Made by a program: the position numbers and the translations under genes. A DNA stretch of 55,303 bases from a virus, in the UHGV virus genome UHGV-0114783, one strand, 5' to 3'. Shown here one piece after another: positions 26,825 through 44,250 of the stretch. Within the stretch, counting starts at the first letter, position 1. Each line of letters begins with the position of its first letter. The notes below the pieces were generated by a model. The model did not search any database and was not told the DNA's origin. It saw only the letters and a program-made list of their open reading frames with translations.

Positions 26825-26966
26825 GGCATATCAATTTTTGGATAATTATGATTTCAAACGGGAATAGCTGGCTTTAAGCCAGCTTTTTTTATGCCCAAAG
26901 CTAACCGGAATGCGTTTTTTTTATTCAAATCATATATAATCATATCGAATATATACGGAGGTTTTT

Positions 26967-27179: not shown

Positions 27180-27318
27180 ATGTTTGCAGATTTGGGAAAG
27201 AGGGCTTGCTAACGGCTATCCGGGCAAGCCCTTTTTATTGTCAGTGGTGGGGATCTGTAACTTACGGCCACCAGCGCCGGTAATCACCTTCTGGCTGGTG
27301 GCTTCACTGGCATGGCTA

Positions 27319-27678: not shown

Positions 27679-27682
27679 GGTA

Positions 27683-27964
27683 TTACCTCCTCAACAGGTT
27701 TATGTCAGCCTGAAAGCTGGCGATCAGGTTCTCAATGGTGGTGAATGTCACCGGATATTCCCGATCATGGATGTGTTTGTGGTCGCCTTTGCCACGTTCG
27801 TTGTCGTAACGCATGACGCACTCGCCATCTACGATGTAGGCCAGACTGTACTTGTATTGGTGCTGGCTACCTAAAATTGCCGGGTCTACTTCCAGAATGC
27901 GGATCGAGGCGAAAGCGTTATCAGCTATCTGGATACGGCGGTTCATCAACTCAACAGCGGGCAT
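27683..27964 (-). CDS. Small protein of unknown function (first gene of a two-gene module)
   Basis: 93-aa ORF tightly coupled to the downstream HTH gene. Confidence 0.45.
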   Translation of the reverse strand: MPAVELMNRRIQIADNAFASIRILEVDPAILGSQHQYKYSLAYIVDGECVMRYDNERGKGDHKHIHDREYPVTFTTIENLIASFQADINLLRR

Positions 27965-28204
27965 TGGCTTATCTCCTTGTTGATGTAAATAATAACATCA
28001 CAAACGAATGATGTAAATGATTACATCATTGCGGGTAAGTTACCGATGGCATGAACGGTTCGCTGCTGGTGGCTCTCGATCTCCTGAAATCTCAGGAGAT
28101 TGCCGGGCATGATTTTAATCGGCGGACTTTTCCGCCGATTGAATACGGGCAGTTCGCTCCCTGCGTGTCGGTTTTGTTTGTGGATTATTCGCGTTTCGTT
28201 TCTG

Positions 28205-28310
28205 GTGAATTCGCATTCGCAATTTTTCCGAGAAGCCTTATCCGGCCTGCTTTGAGCAGTGTTCTCTCTTTGCGAATTCGCAATTCCATTCGCACTTTGA
28301 TTCGCAGTTT
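28205..28310. promoter_or_regulatory. Cluster of ATTCGCA heptamer repeats including the palindrome TGCGAATTCGCA
   Basis: Six or more copies of ATTCGCA within about 100 bp of non-coding-looking sequence. Confidence 0.4.
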
Positions 28311-28436
28311 TCAAATGTTCCCATTCCGGGGGCATGGACGATTCGACAGGTGTTACAAACGTTGGTGGTGAAATATCTTCTTGCGCTGGCGGGCAGGGTG
28401 TGGTTATGATTATTTCGCACCTCACAAAACGGGTGC

Positions 28437-28655
28437 CGGGTTTAGCAGCCTGAACGTTCTAGCGGGTAGCCGCTGATTTCCGTATAGCGGTATTTTTACG
28501 CCCGAAAACCAACCACACCCCCGATTTATGGCGGGGCGTGGTGGGGAGGCTTAACGCCTGCTGGTTTCCTAGAACGCCAGTCTGCTAACCCCGCCACGTC
28601 TCGCCACCCATGTTTAGCAGCATCTGGCGAGACTCCTTCAATATGTTCTAGGAGC
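28437..28655 (+). ncRNA. Candidate structured regulatory RNA region with mutually complementary repeats (P4 immunity-like arrangement)
   Basis: TTTAGCAGC...CGTTCTAG at 28441..28462 and again at 28613..28650, complementary block CTAGAACG...TCTGCTAA at 28569..28589, GC hairpin near 28512..28545. Confidence 0.35.
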
Positions 28656-28751
28656 CGCTAAAAATGGCTAGATCCGCACATCCAAAATTCACCTGGCGCT
28701 TTCTCGCGCTTAATCGCCACGACAAAAAAGCCAAACCTTGCCGTTTGTCCG

Positions 28752-29723
28752 TTGAGGCTGCGACCGAACGCGAAGCCCGCCGCATCCTTGCGCCGCACTT
28801 TATTTTGTCTCTGGCCGCACGTCTGCCAGTGCCGGAGGTGCGCCGTGTTTAACCTCCAGACTCTGACAGCCAAAGCCCGCGAGCTGCGCGGCAATGTCGT
28901 TAAAGCGGCGAGCACAAAGGGCAGTCGCACCATGACCCCTGTTTATGACCGCGACGAGCAGCGCAAGCTACGTGAGCGCATCCAGCAGACGCAACCGGAT
29001 TGGGTATTGCTCTGGTGGGATATTGCGACCGTAACCGGCTGGCGTACCAGCGATGTTTGCAACCTGCGCTATTCCTGCGTCAATTGGGAAACGGGGCAGG
29101 CGACAATTATCGTTGCCAAGCAAACCAAAGCCGCCGAAGCGCGGGCAACCCGCAAAGGTATTGAAATTGTGCGCCAGCAGCGCAAGGACGCCGCACGGCT
29201 CGCCGCTGACCATATCGCCTACATGAAGTGGGATAGTATCGGCTGTGATGAACTGGCCGCCGATATGAACGACGAAGAACAGGCGATTGTGTTCGGGCTG
29301 GTGGCAAAGGCTGACGTCAAGCACGACACCAAACAGTTACCGCCCGGCATCATCAAGCGGCTGCGTGACCGGCAGGATCGGAATCTGGTAGAGGACGACC
29401 TGGTATTTTCCCGCTCTCAAATCGAAAGTAACCGTTGTCAACGTCTGGAAGGTAGCGTGACCCGCCAAACCATCTGGCGCAAACTTCATGGCGTCATGGC
29501 GTGGTTTACCCGCTTCATTAACGCTAAATTGCGCCTGAGCGCCTATTCAAGCCGAAAAATAGCAGCCTTTAATCTTATGTCCGCAGGTGGCGAACAGGGC
29601 TTATTGGTGGCGTCTGAAATGCTGGGCCATAGCAACCCGGCGATAACTCGCACTTACCTTCAATTAGGCAGCAAAGCCGCCGCTATCCAGTCCCGTTTAG
29701 CAATGGAGGCCGGAAATGCGTAA
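28752..29723 (+). CDS. Divergent tyrosine-recombinase-like protein (start uncertain)
   Basis: ORF track 323 aa; C-terminal region with TGWRTSD ... LGHSNPAITRTYLQL resembling recombinase boxes; likely real start at an internal GTG/ATG (around 28846 to 28932). Confidence 0.45.
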   Translation: MRLRPNAKPAASLRRTLFCLWPHVCQCRRCAVFNLQTLTAKARELRGNVVKAASTKGSRTMTPVYDRDEQRKLRERIQQTQPDWVLLWWDIATVTGWRTSDVCNLRYSCVNWETGQATIIVAKQTKAAEARATRKGIEIVRQQRKDAARLAADHIAYMKWDSIGCDELAADMNDEEQAIVFGLVAKADVKHDTKQLPPGIIKRLRDRQDRNLVEDDLVFSRSQIESNRCQRLEGSVTRQTIWRKLHGVMAWFTRFINAKLRLSAYSSRKIAAFNLMSAGGEQGLLVASEMLGHSNPAITRTYLQLGSKAAAIQSRLAMEAGNA

Positions 29724-29895
29724 AACCTTCCAGATTGACGGATACGCTGTTAACAGGCGCGGGCATACGGTAGGGATTCACTACACCATGACCAGCACTA
29801 GCCCAGAAACAGCTAAATCTACTGCGCAACTACTGGCGCAGAAGGGCAGCTATAAACACGTTCGCATTACCCGCATTCGTGAGGTGGCAGCATGA
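29716..29895 (+). CDS. Small hypothetical protein (59 aa)
   Basis: Hand-translated ORF with GGAGG ahead of the ATG; overlaps neighbours by a few bases; not in ORF track. Confidence 0.4.
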   Translation: MRKTFQIDGYAVNRRGHTVGIHYTMTSTSPETAKSTAQLLAQKGSYKHVRITRIREVAA

Positions 29896-30155
29896 ACATA
29901 AATACCATCTACCGCCACCCGGCAGAGCTGGAAGCCGAAGCGATGCTATCTCGTAAAGAAGCATACCCGGATGATTTTACGCTGGCAGACCGAACAGCAG
30001 AACGCATGACCCGCGCCCGCAATGGGCTGGCTCACGTTATGACCGATTTAGCCACTCAACTAGACGATGAACAGGCCGCTATCGTGTATTGCTGGCTGAG
30101 TAAAGTCCTGACGATTATCGATATAGCCAGAATTGATGCGGAGGCCAGCGCATGA
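29892..30155 (+). CDS. Hypothetical protein
   Basis: 87-aa ORF, translationally coupled (ATGA overlap). Confidence 0.45.
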   Translation: MNINTIYRHPAELEAEAMLSRKEAYPDDFTLADRTAERMTRARNGLAHVMTDLATQLDDEQAAIVYCWLSKVLTIIDIARIDAEASA

Positions 30156-30373
30156 GCCAGTTACAACTGATTGATGCCACCTGTCAGATTGAACAGGCAC
30201 AGGCTGTTTTATCCATGTGGCTGGAGAGCACCACCAAAGACACTAGCCCCGACCTTCCGCGTCTTATCGGTTCAATCCTCACTTTGCTGCATGGCGTCCC
30301 GGAGGCAATGGAAGAAGCCGAAAGCAAGCTGGCTGACTATGTGATGCGTGAATATCGGGAGGGCAAGTCATGA
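30152..30373 (+). CDS. Hypothetical protein
   Basis: 73-aa ORF, coupled. Confidence 0.45.
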   Translation: MSQLQLIDATCQIEQAQAVLSMWLESTTKDTSPDLPRLIGSILTLLHGVPEAMEEAESKLADYVMREYREGKS

Positions 30374-30960
30374 GCTATCACGCAGAGGCAACGCCGCACG
30401 GCGTCAATATCATGACCAGCAATGATGCCGGGATATATGAGCATGTAGCCATTATAACCTATGAGAGCGCTGTAAGCCGTCTGGATGCGGGAGAGTACGA
30501 CGATACGCCAGATATCGGCTACGCCATTCATTTTGCCGTTGCTGATGGCGGGGCGCGTGGCTGGTTCGACTTTACTGCGCAGCATAACGTCACTATGTGG
30601 CGCTGGCTGATTGCTGCGACGTTCGTTTCTGAGATGAAGCGCGAAAACGGCACAACCTCCGTCACGGAGGCTGACGGCACAACATCGCAGGTGGCGATTT
30701 ACTCCAATGGTAATGCGGGCATGGTGATTTACCCGTTTGCTGAACGGCTGGCGATGGCGAACAACATCGAGGGCGCAATGATTGAGCGATACGGCGTCGA
30801 ACAGGGTACGGAAAACGCCATTGTGTTCTACCGCGCCATGCTGGACACGGAGCGCGGCGAGTTGACCCCGTTCGGGCGTCAGACGCTGGCAGAGCTACAC
30901 GATGGATTCATTGCCGATCTGAATGAAAACGGCTGGCCTGAAATGCCGCTGGCGCACTGA
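30370..30960 (+). CDS. Hypothetical protein
   Basis: 196-aa ORF immediately upstream of the primase gene. Confidence 0.45.
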   Translation: MSYHAEATPHGVNIMTSNDAGIYEHVAIITYESAVSRLDAGEYDDTPDIGYAIHFAVADGGARGWFDFTAQHNVTMWRWLIAATFVSEMKRENGTTSVTEADGTTSQVAIYSNGNAGMVIYPFAERLAMANNIEGAMIERYGVEQGTENAIVFYRAMLDTERGELTPFGRQTLAELHDGFIADLNENGWPEMPLAH

Positions 30961-30973
30961 GGGAGGTACACGA

Positions 30974-33754
30974 ATGCGTAATATCGACCTTATCCGCGAA
31001 GTGACCACCGCCGCAGCAGGGCGCTGGCCTTATGTGCTGGCTGGATTGTCTATCGACGTGCCTGATTCATCGCGCCGCCATGCCCCCTGCCCTGCATGTG
31101 GCGGTACGGATCGCTTCCGGTTCGATGATAACGGGCGCGGCAGCTTTATCTGCAACCAGTGCGGCGCGGGCGACGGGCTGGATTTAATCAAGCGGGTTAA
31201 CAACTGCGACACCACGGAGGCGGCGCACCTTGCCGCTGATGTGCTGGGTATTGATTACCGGGCAGCAGAAACCGACCCGACAGCAGCCAGCCAGAGGCGG
31301 GAGCAAATGGAGTCTGAGCGCCAGCAGCGCGAGCAGGAGCGCCAGAAACAGGCAGCAGAGGACGCAGAGCAGCGAAGGGCTACGTTTGCCAGCCTGTATG
31401 CCGGAATGCGCCAGAGCGTCACACGGGGCGAATCTGAATATCTGATGGCTAAGGGGCTGGACGGGTTCACTTTCCCGCTATTGCCTGATGGTTCAGTCCT
31501 GCTTGAGCTGGTGGATGAGTCCGGCGCAGTGGCAGCCGCACAGACCATCACCCCACAGGGAGAAAAGCGCCTTCTGACAGGTTCAGCAAAGCGCGGGGCA
31601 TATCACGCCGTAAACGCGCCAGAATCGCCGCAGAGCGTTTTAATTGCCGAGGGGCTGGCAACGGCGCTATCCGTTCACCAGATGCACCCCGAAGCGCTGG
31701 CGGTGGTCGCAGTGGACGCCGGAAACCTGCTTTCGGTCGCACAGCTTATGCGCCAAAAGCACCCTAACGCGCGGATCATCATTGCCGCAGACAATGACCA
31801 GAGCGCCGAAAGTGACAGAAGAGGAGGAGTGAAAATTAACACAGGTAAGGAGTGCGCGGAGAAAGCCGCAAAAGCCGTTGCTGGCTGGGCCTCGCTGCCA
31901 CCCGTGGACTACAAAGCGGACTGGAACGATTACCACCAACAATATGGACTGGAAGCCGCTACAGCAGCATTTAACGCCTCAATGTACCAACCGGAGGGTA
32001 AGAAAGTGGGTGTGACACTGGCAGCAATCGACGGCGGCAAGAAAAGCCCTGGTATCGACGACGACCTTAAACCGCGAGTAGAGAGCCGTTCGGATGGCAT
32101 TCACTGGATCACCCCGAAAGTGGACAAAGACACAGGGGAAATTATCAATACCGAGGCGTGGCTATGCTCTCCGCTGGAGATTGCTGGTGCAGGGAGTGAT
32201 AACGCCAGACAGCGCTTTCTGATCCTGCGTTGGGACGTTCCCGGCAATCGGGGGCAAGTTACCCGTGCGCTTCCTTGGGAGGACATTGGCGACCGCGAGG
32301 GATGGCGAACTCTGAAAAACGGCGGTGTCAGTGTGACGACCAAACCATCGTTGCGGGCAATTCTGGCCGACTGGCTACAGCGAACCGGTAGCGGCAAGGA
32401 GTGGCAGATCAGCCACACCACAGGCTGGCACAGCGGGGCGTACATCATGCCGGATGGTGATGTTATTGGTGATCCAGAGATACCGCTTTTATTCAGTGGC
32501 CGCAGTGCGGCGGCTGGTGGCTATACCGTCAGTGGAACGCCGGAAAGCTGGCGTGATTCGGTGGCGCGTCTTGCGTTGGGCAACCCGTCAATGATGCTGG
32601 GTGTTGCTGCTGCGCTGTCTGCACCGCTGATCGGGCTTGTTGGCGCTGACGGTTTCGGTGTTCACCTTTTCGAACAGTCCAGCGCAGGGAAGACGACGAC
32701 CGCCAACATTGCCAGCAGCTTATACGGTGAACCGGATGCCCTGCGCCTCACCTGGTACGGTACTGCGCTGGGTATCGCCAACGAAGCGGAAGCGCATAAC
32801 GACAGCCTGTTACCGCTGGACGAAGTGGGGCAGGGCAGTAGCGCCAAAGACGTTGCCACGTCGGCTTACACGCTGTTTAACGGTGCCGGAAAGTTACAGG
32901 GGGCGAAGGAGGGCGGCAACCGTGAGTTAAAGCGCTGGCGTACCGTGGCGATCAGTACCGGGGAAATGGACATTGAAACGTTTCTTTCTGCTGGTGGGCT
33001 GAAAGTTAAGGCCGGGCAACTGGTGCGACTGCTTAATTTACCGATGGAGAAATCAGTAACGCACCATGAGTACCAGAACGGGAAGCAACACGCCGACGCA
33101 CTCAAAGAGGCTTACCAGACGAACCACGGAGCCGCAGGCCGTGAATGGATTAAATGGCTTGCAGGCCACCAGCAGGAGGCAAAACAAGCTGTCAGAGCGG
33201 CGCAAGAGCGCTGGCGCAGTCTTATCCCCGCTGATTATGGCGAACAGGTTCATCGTGTAGGCGAGCGGTTCGCCATTCTGGAGGCGGCGCTGGTGCTTGG
33301 GATGCCTGTCACTGGCTGGGGGGAGCAGGAAAGCCGGGACGCCATCCAGCATGGCTTTAACGCCTGGGTGAAAGAGTTTGGCACGGGGAACCGTGAGCAT
33401 AAGCAGATCATCGAGCAGGCAGAGGCGTTTCTTAATGCATACGGACTGAGCCGATTTGCACCTTACCCTTATGACCCGGCTGACATGCCGATTCGGGATT
33501 TGGCCGGGTACCGTCAGAAAGGGGCGCATGATGCTGATCCGATAGTGTTCTACACGTTCCCGGCAGCATTCGAAGGTGAGATTGCGAAGGGATTCAACGC
33601 GAAACAGTTTGCCCGTGTGCTGGCCGGGGCTGGGGTGCTGAAACCGCCAGCCAGCGGAAGGGGGTATCAGCGTAAATCCCCGCGAATTGATGGACGCCAG
33701 ATAAACGTTTATGTGCTCCAGCTACGACCCGACGAGATAGAGGGTGAAGAATAA
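30974..33754 (+). CDS. Primase-helicase (P4 alpha-like: zinc ribbon, TOPRIM, Walker-A NTPase)
   Basis: ORF track 30923..33754 trimmed to the ATG at 30974; CPACGG...CNQCG zinc ribbon, TOPRIM-like IAEGLATA...IIIAADND, Walker A GADGFGVHLFEQSSAGKTT. Confidence 0.85.
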   Translation: MRNIDLIREVTTAAAGRWPYVLAGLSIDVPDSSRRHAPCPACGGTDRFRFDDNGRGSFICNQCGAGDGLDLIKRVNNCDTTEAAHLAADVLGIDYRAAETDPTAASQRREQMESERQQREQERQKQAAEDAEQRRATFASLYAGMRQSVTRGESEYLMAKGLDGFTFPLLPDGSVLLELVDESGAVAAAQTITPQGEKRLLTGSAKRGAYHAVNAPESPQSVLIAEGLATALSVHQMHPEALAVVAVDAGNLLSVAQLMRQKHPNARIIIAADNDQSAESDRRGGVKINTGKECAEKAAKAVAGWASLPPVDYKADWNDYHQQYGLEAATAAFNASMYQPEGKKVGVTLAAIDGGKKSPGIDDDLKPRVESRSDGIHWITPKVDKDTGEIINTEAWLCSPLEIAGAGSDNARQRFLILRWDVPGNRGQVTRALPWEDIGDREGWRTLKNGGVSVTTKPSLRAILADWLQRTGSGKEWQISHTTGWHSGAYIMPDGDVIGDPEIPLLFSGRSAAAGGYTVSGTPESWRDSVARLALGNPSMMLGVAAALSAPLIGLVGADGFGVHLFEQSSAGKTTTANIASSLYGEPDALRLTWYGTALGIANEAEAHNDSLLPLDEVGQGSSAKDVATSAYTLFNGAGKLQGAKEGGNRELKRWRTVAISTGEMDIETFLSAGGLKVKAGQLVRLLNLPMEKSVTHHEYQNGKQHADALKEAYQTNHGAAGREWIKWLAGHQQEAKQAVRAAQERWRSLIPADYGEQVHRVGERFAILEAALVLGMPVTGWGEQESRDAIQHGFNAWVKEFGTGNREHKQIIEQAEAFLNAYGLSRFAPYPYDPADMPIRDLAGYRQKGAHDADPIVFYTFPAAFEGEIAKGFNAKQFARVLAGAGVLKPPASGRGYQRKSPRIDGRQINVYVLQLRPDEIEGEE

Positions 33755-33778
33755 AAACACACATACGAGATGTTTTTT

Positions 33779-34073
33779 TGTTGGTTCAGTTGGTTCAGTA
33801 ACTATTTAATTAATATAAGTGTGTGTATTTAATGCATTTACATGCTTGTAAGTGAACCAACACCGAACCAACAAACGCCCATTTTGAACCAACAAATGCC
33901 GCTATTGAACCAACGCCCTTTTCTGGCTGGCCTGTAAATCTTTCCCACTGAACCAACACGAAAATAGCGTTTGTTGGTTCAAAACGGGGCTTTGTTGGTT
34001 CACTCCTAAAGAAATAATCCTTATAAAACAACAATCTTTACAAATTGAACCAACTGAACCAACTGAACCAACA
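33779..34073. repeat. Iteron array, about a dozen GAACCAAC/GTTGGTTC octamers in both orientations (candidate origin of the nested element)
   Basis: Direct reading: TTGGTTCAG x2, GAACCAAC x5, GTTGGTTC x2, then GAACCAACTGAACCAACTGAACCAAC, immediately downstream of the primase gene. Confidence 0.7.
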
Positions 34074-34355
34074 TGTTTTTGCTTATCTATAGAGTTTTTT
34101 CGGAGAGTAATTACTAATTTGGAGGGGCGTCGCCTAAGCGAAAGTATGCGGAAACGGCAACTTTGCGGAGCGGAAAAGAAAAAGCCCGCGCTGGAGAGGC
34201 GAGGGCTTTTGTTAACCATGTTTATGCAATCACACAACGGTGGATCACCGTCATAGTATCACGTCGATTTATCATTTCAATATGCGCAATGATATTTACT
34301 AACATTGCAATTTATGCAATGATCAGAATTTAAACAACGCAAAAGGTTATGAACA

Positions 34356-34919
34356 ATGAAACAGATAACCAATGTTAATCTGGAAAGTGATAACTCTGGT
34401 GGTACCGTCGAGGTGACTTACTCCGATGATACGTTCGAAAGGCTGACCTGCTCGCTTCCTGTGGCTCTCGTCATTGCGAATCTTGCAACGACGCTTAAGC
34501 AGGAACGTGCAACACGCATTGCAACTGGCGACCGCCTGCGTCGGATGTACACCCGCGATAGTGACATGATTACTCGCAGTGGCAGCGGCGCTTCTACGAC
34601 CTCCACCGCGCCAACGTCAATGGACGCTGAATTTATGCGCCTGGTACGCGCGGTAGCACCAAAGTATGACAACGCCCTTCCTGATACCGATCCTCGCCTT
34701 GTTGCGCTCGACGTGCTGCGTTACGCACCCGCTGAGGCATTCAGTGCGGTACATCCGACCCCGCTATCAGAGATTCAGCTTGATCAGGCTATCGACGTTC
34801 TGGAGCAGGTTGGCGACTACATGCGAGTTAACAACGTTTCACCGAAGATTCTCTCCACAGGCGACGCCATTCGCAGCATTAACACCGATAATGCCAGTTT
34901 CTGGCATCGCACGAAGTAA
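34356..34919 (+). CDS. Hypothetical protein
   Basis: 187-aa ORF after the iteron region. Confidence 0.45.
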   Translation: MKQITNVNLESDNSGGTVEVTYSDDTFERLTCSLPVALVIANLATTLKQERATRIATGDRLRRMYTRDSDMITRSGSGASTTSTAPTSMDAEFMRLVRAVAPKYDNALPDTDPRLVALDVLRYAPAEAFSAVHPTPLSEIQLDQAIDVLEQVGDYMRVNNVSPKILSTGDAIRSINTDNASFWHRTK

Positions 34920-34925
34920 GGAGCA

Positions 34926-35120
34926 ATGAGCATGGCTATTTATGACCCGAAATTAGCAGCAGGAAACCCGCAAAGCGCCGGGCGTAAACTCTTTGGCCGT
35001 GAGCATGCCGAGCAGTTACGTATGCGTAACAACTTCAACAACGAATGCCGCAATCTGGAAAAAGTCAACGAAGCGAATGCAAAGTTCTGGAGTGAACAGG
35101 ATGAAAAAGCCAAACGTTAA
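34926..35120 (+). CDS. Hypothetical protein
   Basis: 64-aa ORF. Confidence 0.35.
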   Translation: MSMAIYDPKLAAGNPQSAGRKLFGREHAEQLRMRNNFNNECRNLEKVNEANAKFWSEQDEKAKR

Positions 35121-35268
35121 ACCGGTATTACTTTCTGGCGACCAGTTCGCCGCAATCTGCAAGATCCAGGAGCGCGAACGCCAGCGCTCCGATATTGGCG
35201 TTGCGCCTTCTGTCCATCAAATTGCCCGTGGGCTGGTGGCGAAAGCGCTGGCATCAATTCAGGAATAA
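35101..35268 (+). CDS. Hypothetical protein (55 aa)
   Basis: ORF track 34993..35268 trimmed to the ATG at 35101. Confidence 0.3.
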   Translation: MKKPNVKPVLLSGDQFAAICKIQERERQRSDIGVAPSVHQIARGLVAKALASIQE

Positions 35269-35273
35269 CGACT

Positions 35274-36341
35274 ATGTCATATAACTGGATGCGCCATTTC
35301 GAGCTACAGCTCATCGATGAGAATGGCAAAGGAATTAGCCTTAGTGATTTCAAAGTTACCTTTGATATAGAGCGTAACGATAACAAATGGCCAGCTGTTG
35401 CGACGGTCAAGATCTACAACCTTTCACCAACTACTCAGAACCGTATTATGCAACGTGAGTTTGCCAAAATTGTGTTGATAGCGGGGTATGATGGTCGTGC
35501 GCAGGATGTAAGGGCAAGTGATGTGGGGATTGCACGTGAAATATCAGCAAGCGAAGTGGGCCAGGCTAACGGCGCAAACTACGGAGTCATTTTCAGCGGT
35601 GATATCCGCTTCACTGTGACCGGAAAAGATAACCCTGTCGATTCATGGGTACAGGTGCAGGCTTGTGACTCTGTGGAGGCGTTTACCAGCGCATTTATCA
35701 ACACCACTATCAGCAAAGGCTACACCACAGAAGATATTTATGTTGAGCTTATGAAAAGGCTGGAACCTTACGGCATTTCTCGCGGTATTGTTCCTGAATT
35801 CCCGGCAACGGTATTTCCTCGCGGTCGAGCCCTCTTTGGCTATGTCCATAACTATCTCGATGAAGTGGCCGCGCAGTGCAAAGCCACTTGGCAATTCAAC
35901 TATGGAAAAGTCGATATTGTTCCCAGAGACAAGGCCACTCATGAAGCTGTGGTTCTCAACGCTAATACCGGGCTTATCGGTATGCCTCAGCAGACCATCG
36001 GTGCGGGTGTGAATGTCAAATGCCTGATTAACTCACGGATTCACCTGAACGGGCTTATCCAACTGGATCAGGCTTCGGTATATCGTAGCGCCTTATCTGC
36101 GGATCAAATTGCCCAAGCTGGTGGGCCAATTTCGGTGGAAAGCCAAAACGGAAACCTTGTCACTACTGGATTAACGCAGAGTCCGGCGAGCATTGCTACC
36201 GATGGTATCTATAAGGTTCGGTATATCAGTTACACGGGCGACACGCGCGGTCAAGCGTGGTATATGGATCTGGCGTGTGAGGCTCGCGGGAATTCTGATT
36301 TATTTTCAAGTTCATTTATGAATAAGCAGAGTGAAGAATGA
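35274..36341 (+). CDS. Baseplate hub-like protein, diverged second copy
   Basis: 355-aa ORF colinear with 47449..48513 (shared WMRHFELQL, RFTVTGKDN, AVVLNANTGLIGMPQQT, YTGDTRGQAWYMDL blocks). Confidence 0.65.
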   Translation: MSYNWMRHFELQLIDENGKGISLSDFKVTFDIERNDNKWPAVATVKIYNLSPTTQNRIMQREFAKIVLIAGYDGRAQDVRASDVGIAREISASEVGQANGANYGVIFSGDIRFTVTGKDNPVDSWVQVQACDSVEAFTSAFINTTISKGYTTEDIYVELMKRLEPYGISRGIVPEFPATVFPRGRALFGYVHNYLDEVAAQCKATWQFNYGKVDIVPRDKATHEAVVLNANTGLIGMPQQTIGAGVNVKCLINSRIHLNGLIQLDQASVYRSALSADQIAQAGGPISVESQNGNLVTTGLTQSPASIATDGIYKVRYISYTGDTRGQAWYMDLACEARGNSDLFSSSFMNKQSEE

Positions 36342-36682
36342 AGAAGATTATTTTACTGATTGGTTTATTGGGCGCATCTGGAAGTCATGCTGCGCAGGTT
36401 ATTACCATGCAGTGCGGAAACTTTCGCTTTGAGATGATAGAAAACTCGATGGCGAGAATTAATGGTGAGTATGTAACATCTCAGAAAATTACAGAGTTCG
36501 GACAGAACGGGGCAAAAGTAGAAATGACGCTTATGCCTGCCAGCGATGGGAATCTGTATGGGTTTGAATACATCCATCCTGACGGTAGCAAAAAGCGCTG
36601 GCTGAATGTTGAGCTTATCCGCACCAATATGAATCAGGCGCGGATCATTGGCTCGTTTGATTGTAAGCGCGTGAAGGGGTAA
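36338..36682 (+). CDS. Small secreted protein with conserved QCG.F and DCK...KG motifs (second copy)
   Basis: 114-aa ORF with signal-peptide-like N-terminus, same position between hub and spike genes as the phage copy. Confidence 0.5.
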   Translation: MKKIILLIGLLGASGSHAAQVITMQCGNFRFEMIENSMARINGEYVTSQKITEFGQNGAKVEMTLMPASDGNLYGFEYIHPDGSKKRWLNVELIRTNMNQARIIGSFDCKRVKG

Positions 36683-36690
36683 GGGGAATC

Positions 36691-37353
36691 ATGCCATTCA
36701 TTCGACCCGCAAATGAGCAGGATGTAACACAGCTTGTTCAGGACAATGCTAAAGCATCTGTAACCAATGCGTTACCTGGCATTATTCGTTCGTTCGATCC
36801 CGAAACTGTCACCTGCGATGTTGATATAGCCATTACGGCAAGAATGACGAAGGCTGGCACAATGGGTGAAGATTTCCAGTATGAGTCCGTCCGCTATCCG
36901 ATTCTTAACGATTTGCCTGTGGTTTTTCCGCGCGGGGGCGGAGTTACGCTTACTTTCCCGGTTAAAGATGGTGATGAATGCCTCATCGTATTCTCTTCGC
37001 GTTCGATTGATTTCTGGTGGCAGAACGGCGGTGTGCAGGAGCGAGCTGATGGGCGTATTTTAGATCTGTCTGATGCGTTCGTTATTCCTGGCCCCCAATC
37101 ACAGGTAAAGAAGATATCCAATATCAGTACCAACGCTGCGCAGCTGCGTACAGATGATGGAGCGGCATTTGTAGAGGTGTCCGCTGGTGGAGCCATTACT
37201 ATTACCAGCTCTCAAATCACCCTTAACGGGCCCGTGCAGGTAAACGGAACGATCACTTCCACTGGCGACCAAACGGCCAACGGTATCAGCCAGATTAACC
37301 ATACCCACGGCGGCGTACAATCAGGCGGCAGCAACACAGGAAAACCACAATGA
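36691..37353 (+). CDS. Baseplate central spike protein (gpV-like), diverged second copy
   Basis: 220-aa ORF colinear with 49246..49986 (shared FPRGGG.TLTFPVK.GDECL, DLSDAF, TDDGAAFVEV, HGGVQ.GG..TG.PQ end). Confidence 0.65.
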   Translation: MPFIRPANEQDVTQLVQDNAKASVTNALPGIIRSFDPETVTCDVDIAITARMTKAGTMGEDFQYESVRYPILNDLPVVFPRGGGVTLTFPVKDGDECLIVFSSRSIDFWWQNGGVQERADGRILDLSDAFVIPGPQSQVKKISNISTNAAQLRTDDGAAFVEVSAGGAITITSSQITLNGPVQVNGTITSTGDQTANGISQINHTHGGVQSGGSNTGKPQ

Positions 37354-37529
37354 GCAATATTGAAAAACTGAAACCAGAAGAAAGCGGAGCCAGCCAGAAT
37401 GGAAAGGTTCGTACCTGGCTGGATGATATCAACGGGCAGCCGGAACCAGATGGTATTGGCAGCTTCGGTGAGAGTGCGATCTGCGAAGAATCACGCACAG
37501 CGGAAACCATGCGAAATAACGTAGGGTGA
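37350..37529 (+). CDS. Small hypothetical protein (59 aa)
   Basis: Hand-translated ORF starting at the ATGA overlap with the preceding gene; not in ORF track. Confidence 0.3.
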   Translation: MSNIEKLKPEESGASQNGKVRTWLDDINGQPEPDGIGSFGESAICEESRTAETMRNNVG

Positions 37530-37619
37530 CGGTCAGATGACGTGATCTGTAACTTTAAGTAGCGGTGCAGGGGCAGAACTCAGCACGCTACTTTTATTTT
37601 CTTTGTCAAAAGGTGAACA

Positions 37620-38093
37620 ATGGCGGCATTACCAACAATGGCTAAGGTTATGATTATTCAATCATTAGCTTGCTACGAACCCCCTTCCAGAATCGTTGAG
37701 CTTGTAAAACAAGATTTTGGCATCGTCGTTACCCGGCAGCAGATATCGGCCTACAACCCTGAAAATACAATGGCAAAAAATCTTAGCCAAAAATGGGTAG
37801 AACTCTTTAATCACACTCGCGCCCGCTTCCAGAGTGAAATATCCGAGATCCCTATCGCTAACAAAGCGTACCGGCTGCGTATGCTCGATCGCATGGCTAA
37901 CCGTGCAGAGGCAATCAAGAATTACGCATTAACAGCGCAGCTTATTGAACAGGCCGCGAAAGAGTGCGGGGACGCTTACACCAACAAATTAAAGGTTGAA
38001 ACAACGGGTAAAGATGGTGGTCCGATCAGAACGGAAACAACGAACTTAACCGCCGAAGAAGCCGGGGAGGCATACCGCAAATTTATGGGATAA
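37620..38093 (+). CDS. Orphan terminase small subunit homolog (no adjacent TerL)
   Basis: 157-aa ORF colinear with the phage TerS at 19944..20417, roughly two-thirds identical by eye, nearly identical C-terminal third. Confidence 0.65.
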   Translation: MAALPTMAKVMIIQSLACYEPPSRIVELVKQDFGIVVTRQQISAYNPENTMAKNLSQKWVELFNHTRARFQSEISEIPIANKAYRLRMLDRMANRAEAIKNYALTAQLIEQAAKECGDAYTNKLKVETTGKDGGPIRTETTNLTAEEAGEAYRKFMG

Positions 38094-38308
38094 CCACCAG
38101 CGCCGTGACACGTCACACGCAAAAATAGCACCGCCCATTAATGGGCTGGTGGCACAGCTTGCATATTGAAATTCCCTGTAAATCTTACAGATCTGGTATT
38201 GAGTAACTTACCCCATTCAGCGCCACACATCACAGAGCAGCCTATGGACTACACACAAAATCAGGCTGAAAATAAATCCTTATATTTCAGTTGATTAAAT
38301 AATAGCCT

Positions 38309-38328
38309 TGCATTCCTGTACCGGATGC
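38309..38328. repeat. Right flanking repeat TGCATtcCTGTACCggATGC (candidate att site of nested element)
   Basis: Matches 25390..25409; the ATG within it is the start codon of the next head gene. Confidence 0.4.
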
Positions 38329-38807
38329 CTGTTGGCATTGCCGGGGCTATCTCTCGCCCGCAGGACTTAACCGTCGAACCGGTGATCCTTAAATCCGCTA
38401 ACGCCTTCGCTGCCTATGGTCTGGCTGGCAAATATGACGCTGACGGCTTTTTCGTGCCGCTGGCGGACGGTGACACCGCCGACAAGGTGAAGGGGATCTA
38501 CGTTCGTCCGTATCCGACCACATCGCAGCCAGACATGGTTCGCCAGGTGGGGACGGATAAGAACTTCCCGGGTGACGCCATGAAGCGTGGCTACATGACC
38601 GTTAATCTCGGTTCTGATTTTGATGCCAGCACCATCAAAAAAGGCGACCCGGTATACGTTGTCGTCTCCACTGATGAATCCATAAAAGTGCCGCTGGGCG
38701 GCTTCATGTCCACGTCCGTCAGTGGCAAAAACGTGGCGCTGACCAACGCCGAATTCACAGGGGCCGGTGACGCTAACGGCAATGTAGAAATCTCCTGGAA
38801 GATTTAA
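38325..38807 (+). CDS. Head structural protein (putative decoration/accessory protein)
   Basis: 160-aa ORF directly upstream of the major capsid gene. Confidence 0.5.
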   Translation: MPVGIAGAISRPQDLTVEPVILKSANAFAAYGLAGKYDADGFFVPLADGDTADKVKGIYVRPYPTTSQPDMVRQVGTDKNFPGDAMKRGYMTVNLGSDFDASTIKKGDPVYVVVSTDESIKVPLGGFMSTSVSGKNVALTNAEFTGAGDANGNVEISWKI

Positions 38808-38818
38808 GGAACAGACAA

Positions 38819-39760
38819 ATGATTACTTTTGATCAGGCAACCGTAGATAGCTCCGGTGCCTTTCTCATCGGGGAGCTGGAGCGACTCGACCAGACGCTGA
38901 ACCTGCCTCTGGTGGGGTACACCTGGACCCGAGATATTCAACTGCGTGAAGACGTGTCTATCGCAGATGACATTTCCAGCTGGACGAATACCAGCTTCGC
39001 CGCTGCGGGTACTGGTGCAAATCCGAATGGTAAAAACTGGGTAGGCAAAGACTCCACCGCTATTGCTGGCGTGAACGTGGATATCAGCAAAGACGGCAAT
39101 CCACTGAACCTCTGGGGTATGGAACTGGGCTGGACCGTTGTAGAGCTGGCAGCTGCTCAGCAGGTAGGCCGCCCGATTGATACCCAGAAGTACGACGGGA
39201 TGCAGCTCAAATGGCAGATGGACAACGACGAGCAGGTTTACATCGGTGATGACGCACTCGGCCTGAAAGGTCTGGCAAACCTCGTCGGTGTGACGCTGAA
39301 CAACGCGCCGAAGACCTGGGCGAACTCAACCAACGACGAGATCCTCGATAGCGTGAACAGCATTCTGTCTAATGCCTGGGCAGCATCCGGTTATTCCATC
39401 GTGCCTTCTGATCTGCGCATTCCGCCAGAGCAGTATTCACTGCTGGCGAGCCGTAAGGTTTCCGAAGCGGGTAACCAGTCACTGCTGACCTATCTGGCTG
39501 TGAACACTATCGCTTTCCACCAGAACGGCGTTCCGCTTGAAATCAAAGCGGTCAAATGGCTGAAAGGGCGTGGGGTTGGCGGTAAAGACCGTATGATCGC
39601 CTACACCAACGACAAGAAATACGTGCGCTATCCGCTGGTGCCGTTGCAGAGCGTTCCTGTCCAGTATCGCGGTCTGTATCAGATTGCGACCTACTACGGC
39701 AAGCTCGGTGCGGTTGAGCCAGTGTACAAAGAAACCCTGTCCTACGTGGACGGTATCTGA
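38819..39760 (+). CDS. Major capsid protein (DUF2184-like)
   Basis: 313-aa ORF in capsid position. Confidence 0.65.
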   Translation: MITFDQATVDSSGAFLIGELERLDQTLNLPLVGYTWTRDIQLREDVSIADDISSWTNTSFAAAGTGANPNGKNWVGKDSTAIAGVNVDISKDGNPLNLWGMELGWTVVELAAAQQVGRPIDTQKYDGMQLKWQMDNDEQVYIGDDALGLKGLANLVGVTLNNAPKTWANSTNDEILDSVNSILSNAWAASGYSIVPSDLRIPPEQYSLLASRKVSEAGNQSLLTYLAVNTIAFHQNGVPLEIKAVKWLKGRGVGGKDRMIAYTNDKKYVRYPLVPLQSVPVQYRGLYQIATYYGKLGAVEPVYKETLSYVDGI

Positions 39761-39801
39761 TAACCAGAACGGCCCCGAAAGGGGCCAGAAGGGAACTGAA
39801 A

Positions 39802-40191
39802 ATGGCGAAAGAAAAGCTGGTTACCATCCATGTTCACACCCCGTTTACGCTGACGCTCGGCGATCAGTCAAAAAGGGAGTTTGGCCGGGGACGGCATAAC
39901 GTACCGGAAGAGGTCGCGTCGCACTGGTTCACCCAGGCGCACTCCGAGCTTTCCGAAAGCGTGATTAGCGACACCGATGATCTGCAACCCATTATCGACA
40001 GCCTGCAAGCTCAGATTGCCGACAAAGATAAGCAGATTATCGATAAAGATCAGTTGATTGCCGATCTGCGAGAAGCGCTGCTCAAGCTGCAAGAGCAGAA
40101 CGACAGCCTGCAAGCGCAGATTGCTGCCGCCCAGACTGGCGGTAATGGGGCGAAAGATGCCAAAGAATCAAAGCCTGCCAACAGTAAGTGA
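39802..40191 (+). CDS. Coiled-coil protein of unknown function
   Basis: 129-aa ORF, heptad-like C-terminal half ([44 protein letters not shown]). Confidence 0.4.
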
Positions 40192-40564
40192 TTTTCGGCG
40201 CGACTTTCCACAGTTTGCTGACCCTGCCAAATATCCCGAAGCACAAATCCAGTTTCGTCTGAATCTGGCTGATGTGCTGCTGAGCGAAAACGTCACCGGC
40301 AAAGAGTTGTTTCCGTACTTTGTCGAGTTGTTCGTGGCTCACTACATGACGCTCTGGGCGGCAGATAGCCGGGCAATGCTCGTCGGCGGCCCGGGTGGCT
40401 CAACCAATGGTGTTCAGTCCTCCAAGTCCGTTGACAAGGTAAGCGTCAGCTATGACACCAGCGCGACGCTAAACCCTGACGCAGGCTTCTGGAATAACAC
40501 CCGATATGGCGCTGAATTTTATCAGCTGATCACGATGTTCGGTGCGGGCGGTCGCCAGCTATGA
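40157..40564 (+). CDS. Head-tail connector/completion protein (putative)
   Basis: ORF track 40058..40564 trimmed to an internal ATG near the preceding stop. Confidence 0.4.
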
Positions 40565-41115
40565 GTTTCAAAAGTGGTGTAACAACGAGGGTTGATAACG
40601 CTCAGGCCATTCTGGATGCGCTCCGGTCGCTAACCAAAAAGGATGTGCTTGTGGGCATCCCGGAAGAAGACAGCGAGCGTGAGGATGTTCCGTTTGGTAA
40701 TGCCGGGATCGGTTACGTCAACGAATACGGCTCACCAGCGCAAAACATACCCCCACGCCCGCACCTGATCCCCGGCGTTAAATCCGTAGAGGAACAGACG
40801 GTGCCGCAGCTCAAAGCAGCGGCGCAGGCTGCGCTTGATGGAAATGCGGCGGGTGCGGAAAGAGCGCTTAACCGCGCCGGAACGCTGGCCGCGAATGGCG
40901 TCAGGCGTTACATGACCATTACCGGCTTTACACCGCTTGCTGATAGCACCGTTGAAGCACGCGCACGCCGTGGGCGCAAAGGGGCAAAAGAGGAACTTGC
41001 GCGGCGCGCTGCTGGTGAGTCTCCTGGAACCGATCTGGTGAAACCGCTAATCGACACCGGGCAATATCGCAGAGCTATTACCCATATTGTGAGGGATAAA
41101 GATGCCGACTCTTGA
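40561..41115 (+). CDS. Virion morphogenesis protein (putative)
   Basis: 184-aa ORF, coupled. Confidence 0.4.
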
Positions 41116-41491
41116 TGTAACAGACGTGCTTTTTGACCCCGATTTTTGCGACTTCAACCTGTGGGTAACGCGTCGCGCGCAAACGGTGGACGATGACGGG
41201 ATCGGCAGCGACAGCGAAGTTAAAACGCAGTTTGCCGGGGTTGTTACTGTTGACCGCTCCCTGGAAAACCGCCGCATGCAGGCCGGGCAGGTTATCAGCG
41301 GCGCGATTCTCATCGTGACAACTGAGCGGCTGACGCAGGGGCAGACTGGCCGTGATGCCGATATCGTGACGTATCAGAACCGTGATTATCGCGTGACATT
41401 CGTCGACCCGTATACGGCTTACGGTGCTGGCTTCGTCCAGGCTCATTGTGAATTACTGCCGTTTGATGGGGGAACTCCCATTGAGCAATAA
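41102..41491 (+). CDS. Virion morphogenesis protein (putative)
   Basis: 129-aa ORF, coupled. Confidence 0.4.
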   Translation: MPTLDVTDVLFDPDFCDFNLWVTRRAQTVDDDGIGSDSEVKTQFAGVVTVDRSLENRRMQAGQVISGAILIVTTERLTQGQTGRDADIVTYQNRDYRVTFVDPYTAYGAGFVQAHCELLPFDGGTPIEQ

Positions 41492-42029
41492 CACCAGCAC
41501 AGAGCGCGGCTGGCTGACACCCACCAGCGGCGATCCGGCTTATGACGAAGCGCTCGACAGGCTGCTAAGCCAGTGGATGCGCAATGTTTCCGGCTTGCCG
41601 TCTGGAATGGTTCGTCCGCGCTGGCAGAAAAATCAGCCGCCACTGCCACCCGTTGAAACGAACTGGTGCGCGTTTGGCGTTACCGGGTTGCTCATTGATA
41701 ACAACCCTGCATTCACCAATCAGACCGACGAGGGCGCTCAGCTCTGGCGGCATGAAACGTTCGAGTGCATGGCGTCGTTCTATGGCCCGGCTGGTATGTC
41801 TTATGCGTCCCGTTTTCGCGATGGCATATCTGTCCCGCAAAACAATGCTGAGCTGAACGCGCTTGGTTTGTCTCTGGGCGACTATACCGGTCTGACCCCT
41901 TTCCCCGAACTTATCAACCAGCAATGGGTTCGCCGCTACGACATGACGGTGCGCCTGCGCCGGAAGGTTGTGCGCGAGTACGGTATTAAATCGCTGGTGG
42001 AAGCGCCAGTCACCTTTTTTGGAGAATAA
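41466..42029 (+). CDS. Tail completion-like protein (putative; start uncertain)
   Basis: ORF track 41424..42029 trimmed to an internal ATG. Confidence 0.35.
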   Translation: MGELPLSNNTSTERGWLTPTSGDPAYDEALDRLLSQWMRNVSGLPSGMVRPRWQKNQPPLPPVETNWCAFGVTGLLIDNNPAFTNQTDEGAQLWRHETFECMASFYGPAGMSYASRFRDGISVPQNNAELNALGLSLGDYTGLTPFPELINQQWVRRYDMTVRLRRKVVREYGIKSLVEAPVTFFGE

Positions 42030-42032
42030 ACT

Positions 42033-43193
42033 ATGACGCAGGGCTTACCTGTATCCAACGTTGTAAACGTTGATGTGATCATCTCGCCGAAAGCGGCTAC
42101 TGGTCGTAACTTCGGCGCGCTGCTGATCCTCGGTTCTTCCACTGTCATTCCAGTGCAGGAACGCGTCCGCCTTTATGCGTCCGTTGAGGACATTGGCGAG
42201 GACTTCGGAGTCGACAGCCCGGAATATGAAGCGGCGCAGGTTTTCTTCAGCCAGTCGCCGAAGCCGACGCAGGTTTATGTTGGCCGCTGGCCGAAGACGC
42301 TGACCTCTTCAGAAGGTGGAAGCGTGGAAACCATCGTGCAAGCTGTTAATGCCTGCCTGCAGTATACCAACTGGTATGGGCTGGTTGTCGCTGATGATGT
42401 TGCTGATGGCGATGATGTGCTTGATGCTGACGACGTGATTGAGGTTGCTAAACTCATCGAAGCGTCCAGCCTGAGCCGCATTTTCGGGGTAACGTCAGCC
42501 GACGCTGAGATCATCAGCACGACTTCGACGACCGATGTTGCGTCTAAATTAAAGGCCGGTAAGTATTCCCGTACCTTTATTCAATATTCCACCAGCAGCC
42601 CTTATGCGGCGGTTTCAGCTTTCGGTCGCGCGTTTACTGTCAATTTCAACGGCAGCAATACCACCATTACCCTGAAATTCAAACAGGAACCGAGCGTAAC
42701 CTACGAAACGCTGACGGTAGGACAGGCGGCGGCTGTGGATGCGAAGAATGCGAACGTGTTCGTGTACTACGCCAACGACACGGCGATCCTGCAACAGGGT
42801 GTCATGGCGAACGGTGACTTCTTCGACGAGCGCCACGGGCTCGACTGGTTGCAGAACTACGTTCAGACCAACCTCTATAACCTGCTTTACACCAGCACCA
42901 CCAAAATTCCGCAGACTGATGCCGGTGTGACCCGTCTGCTTTCCAACGTTGAACAGTCTATGGATCAGTCCGTCACGAACGGTCTGGTAGCGGCTGGCGT
43001 GTGGAATGGTGGCCCTATCGGACAGCTGAATTCCGGCAATACGCTGACCAAAGGTTATTACGTGTATGCGCAACCTCTGTCCGAACAGGCGCAGGCCGAC
43101 CGCGAAGCGCGCAAAGCACCGTTAATTCAGGTGGCCTGTAAGCTGGCTGGCGCAGTTCATTATGCCGATGTTCAGATCAACGTGGTTCGCTAA
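42033..43193 (+). CDS. Tail sheath-like protein (DUF3383-like, putative)
   Basis: 386-aa ORF preceding a tube-sized gene and the tape measure gene. Confidence 0.55.
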
Positions 43194-43203
43194 GGAGCGA
43201 TAA

Positions 43204-43644
43204 ATGGCAACTTATTCTTTTCTCGATGTAACCGCGTCGCTCACCGGGCCGACCGGCGTTATCGATCTTGGTCAGGGTTCTGCGAACTCTGAGGAAGGTA
43301 TCACCCAGACTATGGGCGGCAACAAGAACACCATGACCATCGGTGCCGATGGCGAAGTGATGCACAGCCTGCACGCCGATAAGTCAGGCACCATTACGGT
43401 GACGCTGCTGAAAACCTCCCCGGTGAACAAGAAGCTGTCTCTGGCGTATAACGCGCAAAGCCAGTCCTCTGCCACCTGGGGAAATAACGTGATCGTCATT
43501 CGCAACACGGCATCGGGTGATATTTCTACTGCGCGTTCGTGTGCATTCCAGAAACAGCCTGATTTCAATAACGCCAAAGAGGGCGGAACCGTAGCCTGGG
43601 TATTCGATTGCGGCAAGATTGACCAGCTGCTCGGGGAGTTTTAA
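43204..43644 (+). CDS. Tail tube-like protein (putative)
   Basis: 146-aa ORF after the sheath-like gene. Confidence 0.5.
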   Translation: MATYSFLDVTASLTGPTGVIDLGQGSANSEEGITQTMGGNKNTMTIGADGEVMHSLHADKSGTITVTLLKTSPVNKKLSLAYNAQSQSSATWGNNVIVIRNTASGDISTARSCAFQKQPDFNNAKEGGTVAWVFDCGKIDQLLGEF

Positions 43645-43647
43645 CGC

Positions 43648-44073
43648 ATGGAATTCGAAATTAAAGGCGTGAAATATCGCACCGCAAAGCTCAGCGTTTT
43701 CGAACAGCTGAAGGTGTCCCGAAAGCTGTTGCCGGTGCTGGCCGGGATGGTTTCTGACTTCCGGAGCGTTCAGGAGAAGATCAGCAGCAAAGACACCGAA
43801 GGCGCGATGGCTACCATCCTGCCAAAGATTGCCAATGCTGTGTCCGATCTGAGCGATGGCGACGTTGACGCTATCCTGTTCCCCTGCCTTTCCGTTGTTT
43901 CACGCGAGCACATGAAAGGCTGGGTGCCGGTCTGCCAGCATGGCGAAATGGCGTTTGACGATATCGACCTGCTGACCATGCTGCAACTGGTGGCGCGGGT
44001 GGTCGCCGACTCGCTGGGAAATTTTTTGCAAGGACTCCCTACCAGCGAGACGCCCACCCCGCCAGCGGAATAA
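43648..44073 (+). CDS. Tail assembly chaperone (putative)
   Basis: 141-aa ORF between tube and tape measure genes. Confidence 0.4.
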   Translation: MEFEIKGVKYRTAKLSVFEQLKVSRKLLPVLAGMVSDFRSVQEKISSKDTEGAMATILPKIANAVSDLSDGDVDAILFPCLSVVSREHMKGWVPVCQHGEMAFDDIDLLTMLQLVARVVADSLGNFLQGLPTSETPTPPAE

Positions 44074-44250
44074 CCTTCAACAGCCTGCCGGGCGGTGAAG
44101 ACTTTATTCTTCGTCCGGCGCTTGCCTTCCATATTGACCAGAAAGACCTTAACAGCGGTGCGGTAGACCTCTGCCGTATCGCGCTTCTCAATGACTACCT
44201 CGACATGCGCGAGGATAACGACGCCCGGGTAGATAAATGGAGAGCGGCCA

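Follow-up and report, generated by a model that had tools for sequence, protein, structure and literature searches.

The 55,303-nucleotide stretch analysed here, virus genome UHGV-0114783 (hereafter the window), is a complete prophage in which a P4-like phage satellite is embedded, and this satellite carries a tail-core module of its own: a baseplate hub, a small exported protein and a central spike, encoded at 35274–37529 and each paralogous to a gene of the surrounding helper prophage. The hub–spike module is no recent relic: it belongs to a long-diverged lineage that is specific to satellites and evolves under purifying selection. Judged by gene content and by analogy with the PLE satellites of Vibrio cholerae, the satellite hub and spike would, with moderate probability, form the core of chimeric tails that are otherwise built by the helper.

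The boundaries of the satellite are given by an empty site. Citrobacter phage Omnitron, which lacks the insert, is 99% identical to window positions 19238–25403 and about 98.6% identical to 38309–44765, and joins position 25403 directly to 38309 with a 14-bp overlap, which places the insert at 25404–38308 (12,905 bp). When 25000–39000 was compared with phage genomes by megablast, only the two ends matched. The attachment-site cores at the two ends form a 14-bp imperfect repeat (Table 1). The insertion is intergenic, between the helper DUF2213 gene, whose stop codon is at 25380, and the cement-protein gene, which starts at 38325, with no helper gene interrupted in this window, and all insert genes lie on the + strand, co-directional with the helper late genes. 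The surrounding prophage encodes an integrase, RecT/RecE, a CI-like repressor, an O protein and a Q antiterminator, followed by late genes for DUF2280, TerL, portal, capsid, sheath, tube, tape measure, a Dit-like protein, plug, hub and spike and, beyond the spike set, sheath initiator, Baseplate_J, wedge, fibre and fibre chaperone. The helper is a temperate myovirus of the SEN34/Omnitron type (Brunovirus-like), with a simple baseplate in the style of E217 and Pam3. It is mosaic relative to Omnitron, with a late region (19238–55023) that is 91–99% identical and an early region (8703–19238) that has only two short shared segments, and it encodes a putative phage metallopeptidase (PF18894) at 19292–19912, just upstream of the DUF2280 and TerL genes.

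Within these boundaries, a tyrosine integrase, an AlpA/Vis-like regulator, a P4-type C4 antisense RNA, a primase-helicase, iterons and a DUF2280 paralog identify the insert as a helper-embedded, P4-like satellite. A preliminary description of the sequence had already placed the hub and spike copies in a nested element with integrase and primase, and both the Omnitron empty site and the Pfam matches bear this out. The AlpA-like protein has an identical counterpart in Escherichia coli EC2001 that RefSeq annotates as AlpA family; between its gene and a second, degenerate integrase-like gene, INT2, sits the region with the C4 RNA and an isrK-like element. INT2 is the most conserved backbone protein of the family, with 86–98% identity even across satellites that have different primases. 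The insert also encodes a DUF4222 protein (Pfam). The iteron cluster is the probable replication origin of the satellite, because it adjoins the primase gene. The conserved genes that precede the hub, for a 187-aa protein annotated as XRE-family in one relative and for two small open reading frames (ORFs), gave no Pfam or PHROG match; our guess is that they are regulatory. Downstream of the spike, the satellite DUF2280 protein is a 65%-identical paralog of the helper protein encoded directly upstream of TerL and is probably a small terminase. No Pfam or PHROG match to sid, delta or psu was found in the 18 insert ORFs scanned (a 106-aa + strand ORF at 28051–28371 and the 59-aa ORF that follows the spike were scanned with PHROGs only), and the same searches gave no capsid, portal, TerL, sheath, tube, wedge, fibre or lysis genes among the insert ORFs. 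Lacking Sid–Delta–Psu, the insert is P4-like in its backbone only and is not a P4 family member in the sense of SatelliteFinder; it combines a P4-like backbone with the terminase-paralog strategy of phage-inducible chromosomal islands (PICIs). The same type of element is found free-standing at tRNA-Thr in E. coli G5, with no surrounding prophage, where its late genes are closely similar (hub 79%, spike 90%, 59-aa ORF 98% and DUF2280 96% identical).

The module itself comprises four intact, tightly packed + strand ORFs, with stop and start codons that overlap or abut at the junctions and a Shine–Dalgarno-like motif 5′ of each ORF, so that the insert copies are not disrupted. The preliminary description had called the first three a hub-like gene, a small secreted protein and a gpV-like spike, colinear with but clearly diverged from a helper set at 47449–49986, and all three identities hold. 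By BLASTP, the satellite and helper hubs are 62% identical over 351 aa without gaps (E 4e-166), the spikes are 51% identical (E 1e-72), with differences that are mainly gaps in the C-terminal beta-helix, and the small exported proteins, the most diverged of the three pairs, are 31% identical (E 2e-17, with the helper protein taken as 48482–48862, although its start is probably the GTG at 48524). The colinearity needs a small correction, since a 106-aa ORF of the helper block (48868–49188) has no counterpart in the insert. In phages, this interval from small protein to spike accommodates unrelated inserted genes, which in the EC2001 prophage (L001, 38057–39608) are two Arc-like repressors and an antirepressor and in another prophage (L022, 11459–12450) a YafO toxin; in satellites, the interval is empty. 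The fourth ORF, of 59 aa, is specific to satellites, with 35–45% identity among members other than that of G5. It was considered as a remnant of the phage sheath-initiator gene, a candidate that was rejected as no similarity was found.

By fold and by sequence family, the 35274–36341 product is a gp27/gp44-like baseplate hub. It matches phrog_196, ‘baseplate hub’ (5e-82), and, among solved structures, the Pam3 hub gp19 (1e-10) and phi92 gp137; its score against the Pfam family E217_GP41 (26.3 bits) lies slightly below the cut-off of 27. In Foldseek searches, its AlphaFold model (predicted local distance difference test (pLDDT) 75) matches the hub chains of PhiTE, Bas63, E217 and Pa193 with E values of 1e-14 to 3e-19, and it also resembles the Pam3 hub chain and, more distantly, Mu gp44, T4 gp27 and VgrG. 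The spike consists of a Gp138_N domain (Pfam, 1.4e-37) and a beta-helix that ends in a GpV apex motif (1.2e-7), and matches the solved spikes E217 gp43, phi92 gp138 and Pam3 gp20. In the alignment, the HxH apex (HTH) is kept in all copies and the full beta-helix in all satellites. The N-terminal, hub-binding domain of the spike follows the split between satellites and phages, including a diagnostic three-residue indel, and the C-terminal beta-helix with its apex is a mosaic of three tip types common to phages and satellites, of which the short type is present in the satellite and the long type in the helper of this window. Embedded satellite and helper differ in tip type in four of four pairs, which, with three types, is not significant. 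The small exported protein belongs to phrog_3443, a family to which PHROGs assigns no function; a signal peptide and two invariant cysteines emerge when 39 homologs are aligned, and its AlphaFold model is a seven-stranded beta fold (pLDDT 90) with no match among solved structures.

A search of a large protein collection with the satellite hub returned 508 relatives at E < 1e-40. In an unrooted neighbour-joining tree of the best 120 of these and five reference sequences (125 in all), the hubs split into groups of 50 and 75 sequences, with a bootstrap of 100/100 for the bipartition and mean identities of 55% across the split and of 67% and 73% inside the groups. This tree separates the two copy sets that the preliminary description had proposed to compare by phylogeny, and the separation coincides with genomic context: all 40 satellite-branch hubs examined (13 from genomes and 27 of 27 from IMG/VR) lie in satellite contexts, and all 33 phage-branch hubs examined (4 from genomes and 29 of 29 from IMG/VR) lie in prophages with full tail operons. 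The 56 IMG/VR loci constitute the independent sample, in which a few short contigs show only the module and the DUF2280 gene. The satellite-branch members from genomes are those of the window, EC2001, G5, Serratia H1w, Klebsiella pneumoniae, Pectobacterium, K. quasipneumoniae, Pantoea, S. liquefaciens, Citrobacter freundii, Enterobacter, Raoultella/Klebsiella and one metagenomic contig; their modules lie downstream of a satellite replication module wherever the contig includes upstream DNA, and on the short S. liquefaciens contig (L012) only the module, the DUF2280 gene and host genes are visible. No satellite-type block was found in relatives outside an integrase or primase context. Among sequenced phages, none has a hub nearer to the satellite hub than that of the helper type itself, at 62% identity. 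Conservation across both branches extends to 111 of 355 hub positions, about a third, and eight positions, mostly within residues 160–215, tell the branches apart. Ratios of non-synonymous to synonymous substitution rates (dN/dS) are 0.05–0.11 for the hub, 0.07 for the small protein and 0.06–0.10 for the spike, computed at unsaturated dS with closer relatives, since dS is saturated in distant satellite pairs.

Across satellites, the extents of the module are nested: they always end at the spike plus the small ORF behind it, and grow upstream in the order of the phage genes. The smallest modules comprise the hub, small protein and spike; others add the Dit-like protein, the Dit-like protein and plug, or the tape measure and Dit-like protein, in some cases together with the plug. 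The tape measure, Dit-like and plug genes of the helper (44251–47446) thus have no duplicate in this insert but are present in the modules of relatives. The sheath initiator, Baseplate_J, wedge and fibres were never found, and no tail chaperone was seen, in the satellite modules examined. This nesting, anchored at the spike, defines the module as the set of proteins on the central axis of the tail. The hub–spike module behaves as an exchangeable cassette. With Enterobacter satellites that have a D5-type primase, homology at 90% DNA identity extends from 4 nt upstream of the hub ATG as far as 37427; the EC2001 satellite, at the same site and 95–98% identical on both flanks, has a different five-gene cassette in which the hub is only 61% identical; and a 100% identical hub occurs in satellites embedded at different sites (L019 and L021). 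In a Pantoea stewartii satellite (L011), a Terminase_2-type small terminase (12146–12742) replaces DUF2280 and the hub, small protein and spike are kept; packaging and tail modules thus seem to be exchanged independently of each other.

Embedded relatives occupy at least three late-region sites of SEN34-like prophages, two of which split a helper gene. The intergenic site between DUF2213 and the cement-protein gene is used in this window, L001 and L052; the PF09950 major capsid gene, split into pieces of 153 and 180 residues, in L019/L020 and L050/L051; and the Baseplate_J gene in L016–L018, L021 and L026. The integrases of embedded elements are 53–82% identical to each other and form a group of their own, with subclades that follow the insertion site, and tRNA-targeting integrases are only about 33% identical to them. 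One IMG/VR contig (L031, 14,964 bp) has an odd gene order, with integrase, 187-aa protein, tape measure, Dit-like protein, plug, hub, small protein and spike in succession and the primase at the opposite end; the contig may represent a permuted, tandem or rearranged form, and no terminal repeat was found in it.

In simple contractile tails, such as those of P2, Mu, T4 and E217-type phages, the hub–spike complex nucleates wedge assembly, and the tube and sheath grow from it. On induction of the helper, the satellite module would be transcribed late, with read-through of the Q-antiterminated late transcript of the helper across the co-oriented insert as one likely route. A simple scan found no terminator-like sites on the + strand across the module, and promoter and terminator scanning of this kind gave nothing informative on that strand. 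A satellite hub trimer, plugged by a spike trimer, would then nucleate a baseplate with helper wedges, tube, sheath and fibres, and the resulting tails would be chimeric, with a puncturing core dictated by the satellite. The DUF2280 terminase paralog would steer satellite DNA into helper capsids, probably as headfuls of about three copies, a number made plausible by the size of the insert, around one-third of the helper genome. The satellite might benefit by evading an inhibitor or exclusion factor directed against the helper’s own core, by altered envelope penetration or by competition with the helper. A swap of the cell-puncturing tip of helper tails was one of two readings offered by the preliminary description and, given the precedent of the Vibrio PLEs (PMC12987554), it is the one that we infer to be better supported. 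The other, a relic of recombination with a related phage, is rejected in view of the satellite-specific lineage, the purifying selection and the many integration sites.

Several observations weigh against chimeric tails with a satellite core. Tail formation as such does not require the satellite copies, since the helper retains an intact hub and an intact spike. Related backbones without a hub–spike module are very common in E. coli (L025, STN0717-20, at the yicC–dinD locus, and about 900 further genomes; genes for integrase, AntA, DUF4222, Icd-like protein, DUF927 primase, SSB and PerC), and the module is therefore optional and marks a sub-lineage only. The satellite hub is no closer to the hub of its own helper (62% identity here and 49% in EC2001) than to the hubs of other phages, so that compatibility with the helper wedges is assumed. 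The small exported protein, if its predicted signal peptide is real, cannot be a virion part assembled in the cytoplasm. Finally, the tree that sets the satellite hubs apart is unrooted and limited to the 120 nearest database clusters and five reference sequences.

As opposed to completing a tail, the satellite hub and spike could act by interference only, as dominant-negative decoys that poison the baseplates of the helper or of related invaders, in defence or competition. Satellites commonly sabotage helper assembly, PLE11 has, alongside tail parts of its own, an inhibitor that acts on the phage tape measure (PMC12987554), and a mismatched hub could titrate helper wedges, since the hub nucleates the baseplate. 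We nevertheless regard pure interference as unlikely, and as less likely than chimeric tails: the satellite itself needs tails for transfer, and the additional tape measure, Dit-like protein and plug of relatives complete an axial set that has the look of a functional one. A poison needs interaction domains only, but here the whole beta-helix and its metal-binding apex are kept in all satellites, at dN/dS of about 0.06–0.10, which is unlike a mere assembly poison.

The exchange of cassettes by recombination, which is clear, and the mosaic of spike tips between phages and satellites would also fit a neutral or back-up cargo, that is, captured helper late genes kept transiently or as spare copies, and embedded satellites are known to capture late genes in clusters of up to 17 (PMC10111431). 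That the module is such a cargo is very improbable, however, as the nearest hub of any sequenced phage reaches only 62%, the satellite hubs make up one branch (100/100) under strong purifying selection and the same module is found at the intergenic head site, the capsid gene, the baseplate J gene, a tRNA and other chromosomal loci. A back-up for an interrupted helper gene was rejected as well; no helper gene is interrupted in this window, and the module is independent of the insertion site. The hub–spike core might instead be a helper-range adaptor, analogous to the head–tail adaptors of capsid-forming PICIs (cf-PICIs), that would allow a single satellite to draw on outer tail parts from several helpers. 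The identical hub in L019 and L021 would be in keeping with this, as would free-standing copies in genomes without a detectable related prophage hub, such as that of G5, and the constancy of the module where the type of terminase paralog (DUF2280 or Terminase_2) varies. An adaptor is still improbable, because on structural grounds the hub must fit the wedges of each helper and a satellite-encoded hub would narrow compatibility.

For the small exported protein, a speculative but attractive candidate role is entry exclusion or immunity. A wider and more speculative reading, to which we give a low probability, is that the spike and hub (in larger modules also the plug, Dit-like protein and tape measure) are a self-contained DNA-entry device paired with a cognate periplasmic exclusion or immunity protein. 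If so, satellite particles would inject into helper-carrying cells that are closed to helper-type tips, the exported protein of the satellite would bar rivals with the same tip, and the swappable cassette would act as a lock and key for entry specificity, separate from receptor binding.

Table 1 Features of the satellite and their helper counterparts, in window coordinates
Feature	Position	Strand	Basis or remark
attL core TGCATATCTGTACC	25390–25403	+	10 nt after stop of helper DUF2213 head gene; Omnitron empty site
attR core TGCATTCCTGTACC	38309–38322	+	3 nt before helper cement-protein gene; Omnitron empty site
Tyrosine integrase, 409 aa	25595–26824	+	Pfam Arm-DNA-bind_3 and Phage_integrase
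AlpA/Vis-like regulator, 70 aa	26967–27179	+	Pfam Phage_AlpA, E 4e-4, 20.5 bits against a cut-off of 21
isrK-like RNA element	28417–28497	+	Rfam 44.6 bits, below gathering score of 50
P4-type C4 antisense (CI-like immunity) RNA	28524–28611	+	Rfam 76.1 bits against gathering score of 45; E 9e-14
Degenerate integrase-like protein INT2, 323 aa	28752–29723	+	Pfam Phage_integrase, 1.5e-10
Primase-helicase (Zn-ribbon, Toprim, DUF927), 943 aa	30923–33754	+	Pfam
Iteron cluster (TGAACCAAC / GTTGGTTCA, both orientations, at least 14 copies)	33773–34073		Repeat search; directly 3′ of primase gene
Pre-module genes (187-aa protein and two small ORFs)	34356–35268	+	Conserved; annotation of relatives
Satellite baseplate hub (gp27/gp44-like), 355 aa	35274–36341	+	PHROG and structure matches; satellite-specific branch
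Satellite small exported protein, 114 aa	36338–36682	+	phrog_3443; alignment; AlphaFold model; start overlaps hub stop
Satellite central spike, 220 aa (Gp138_N OB domain, short beta-helix, HxH apex)	36691–37353	+	Pfam, BLASTP
Satellite-only ORF, 59 aa	37350–37529	+	Overlaps spike stop codon; kept among satellites
Satellite DUF2280 protein, 157 aa	37620–38093	+	Pfam DUF2280, 3e-39
Helper DUF2280 (small-terminase position)	19944–20417	+	Pfam; directly upstream of TerL; counterpart of satellite copy
Helper tape measure (SLT domain), Dit-like protein and Pam3_gp18-type plug	44251–47446	+	Pfam
Helper hub	47449–48513	+	BLASTP against satellite hub
Helper small exported protein	48482/48524–48862	+	BLASTP against satellite 114-aa protein
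Helper moron ORF, 106 aa	48868–49188	+	Between small protein and spike
Helper spike	49246–49986	+	BLASTP against satellite spike

The closest known parallel to chimeric tails of this kind is in V. cholerae, where PLE satellites encode their own tape measure, chaperone (TAC) and hub, BhuB, and build chimeric tails on ICP1 parts (PMC12987554, Nature 2026). In PLE virions, the satellite tape measure and hub replace those of ICP1, and PLE11 in addition inhibits the phage tape measure (PMC12987554). Similar to the PLEs, the satellites described here carry diverged paralogs of axial tail proteins of the helper, including the hub, with tube, sheath, outer baseplate and fibres presumably left to the helper, and members of the family differ in the subset that they carry. 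The backbone, P4-like here, is unrelated to that of the PLEs, the host clade is the Enterobacterales, and the helper is a temperate Brunovirus-like prophage, whereas ICP1 is lytic. The constant parts also differ, being hub, spike and small exported protein, with an optional tape measure and no chaperone seen; this insert has neither tape measure nor tail assembly chaperone, and a satellite-encoded spike is not reported in PMC12987554. The satellite hub is 62% identical to that of the helper, compared with 41% for BhuB, and here the chimeric tails are a prediction.

In their placement, the satellites resemble the helper-embedded PICIs (HE-PICIs) described by Tommasini, Mageeney & Williams 2023 (PMC10111431), which are likewise integrated, co-oriented, in the late region of a helper prophage, with zones in the order integration, Bro/immunity RNA, replication and late, with integrase subclades that follow insertion sites and with a late zone of captured phage late genes. 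The 14 HE-PICI sites are in cognates of lambda late genes (PMC10111431), whereas the helpers here are contractile-tailed and SEN34-like, and the insertions fall at DUF2213|cement, in the PF09950 capsid gene and in Baseplate_J; the site in this window is intergenic and interrupts no late gene, although some relatives do split one. The words baseplate, hub and spike are absent from the main text of PMC10111431, and DUF2280, DUF2213, DUF2184 and Gp138 are absent from the available part of its supplements. With P4, the satellite of P2, the insert has in common an integrase, an immunity RNA of the CI/C4 type, an alpha-type primase and a contractile-tailed temperate helper, together with a putative Vis/AlpA and a probable iteron origin; it differs from P4 in that sid, delta and psu were not detected and in its tail-core genes and small-terminase paralog. 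As with cf-PICIs, part of the virion is encoded by the satellite and the rest is stolen, but cf-PICIs make heads and steal whole tails, whereas the present family would steal heads and most of the tail and supply the tail core. The EPIP satellites of Mycolicibacterium, which have a siphovirus helper and a different genome type, also carry an axial tail gene, in their case the tape measure only, with no hub or spike (preprint, PMC12822802).

Helper-embedded satellites and satellite-built chimeric tails are thus each already known, and no new category is proposed here. What appears to be undescribed is a satellite lineage with its own hub–spike core that is widespread in enterobacteria, including Klebsiella, Enterobacter, Citrobacter, Escherichia, Raoultella, Serratia, Pantoea, Pectobacterium and others. 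Full-text literature searches, with incomplete journal coverage, returned no enterobacterial satellite with hub, spike or baseplate genes of its own, in agreement with the view of the preliminary description that a hub–spike pair is not the usual cargo of a satellite. A lack of tail genes commonly serves both to define satellites and to search for them. Tail profiles are, for example, forbidden by SatelliteFinder for PICIs and cf-PICIs, so that elements of this kind are likely to be missed or called defective prophages, which may explain the lack of earlier descriptions of the lineage.

Chimeric tails were reported in 2025–26 as a first, for Vibrio PLEs only, and the lineage described here would make the supply of a tail core a recurrent strategy of satellites. 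It also extends the helper-embedded pattern from lambdoid prophages to contractile-tailed helpers. With parasite and helper in one inducible prophage, the system is experimentally tractable, and it bears on the limits of transduction between strains, on the tolerance of baseplates for foreign hubs and on the engineering of phage and tailocin tips.

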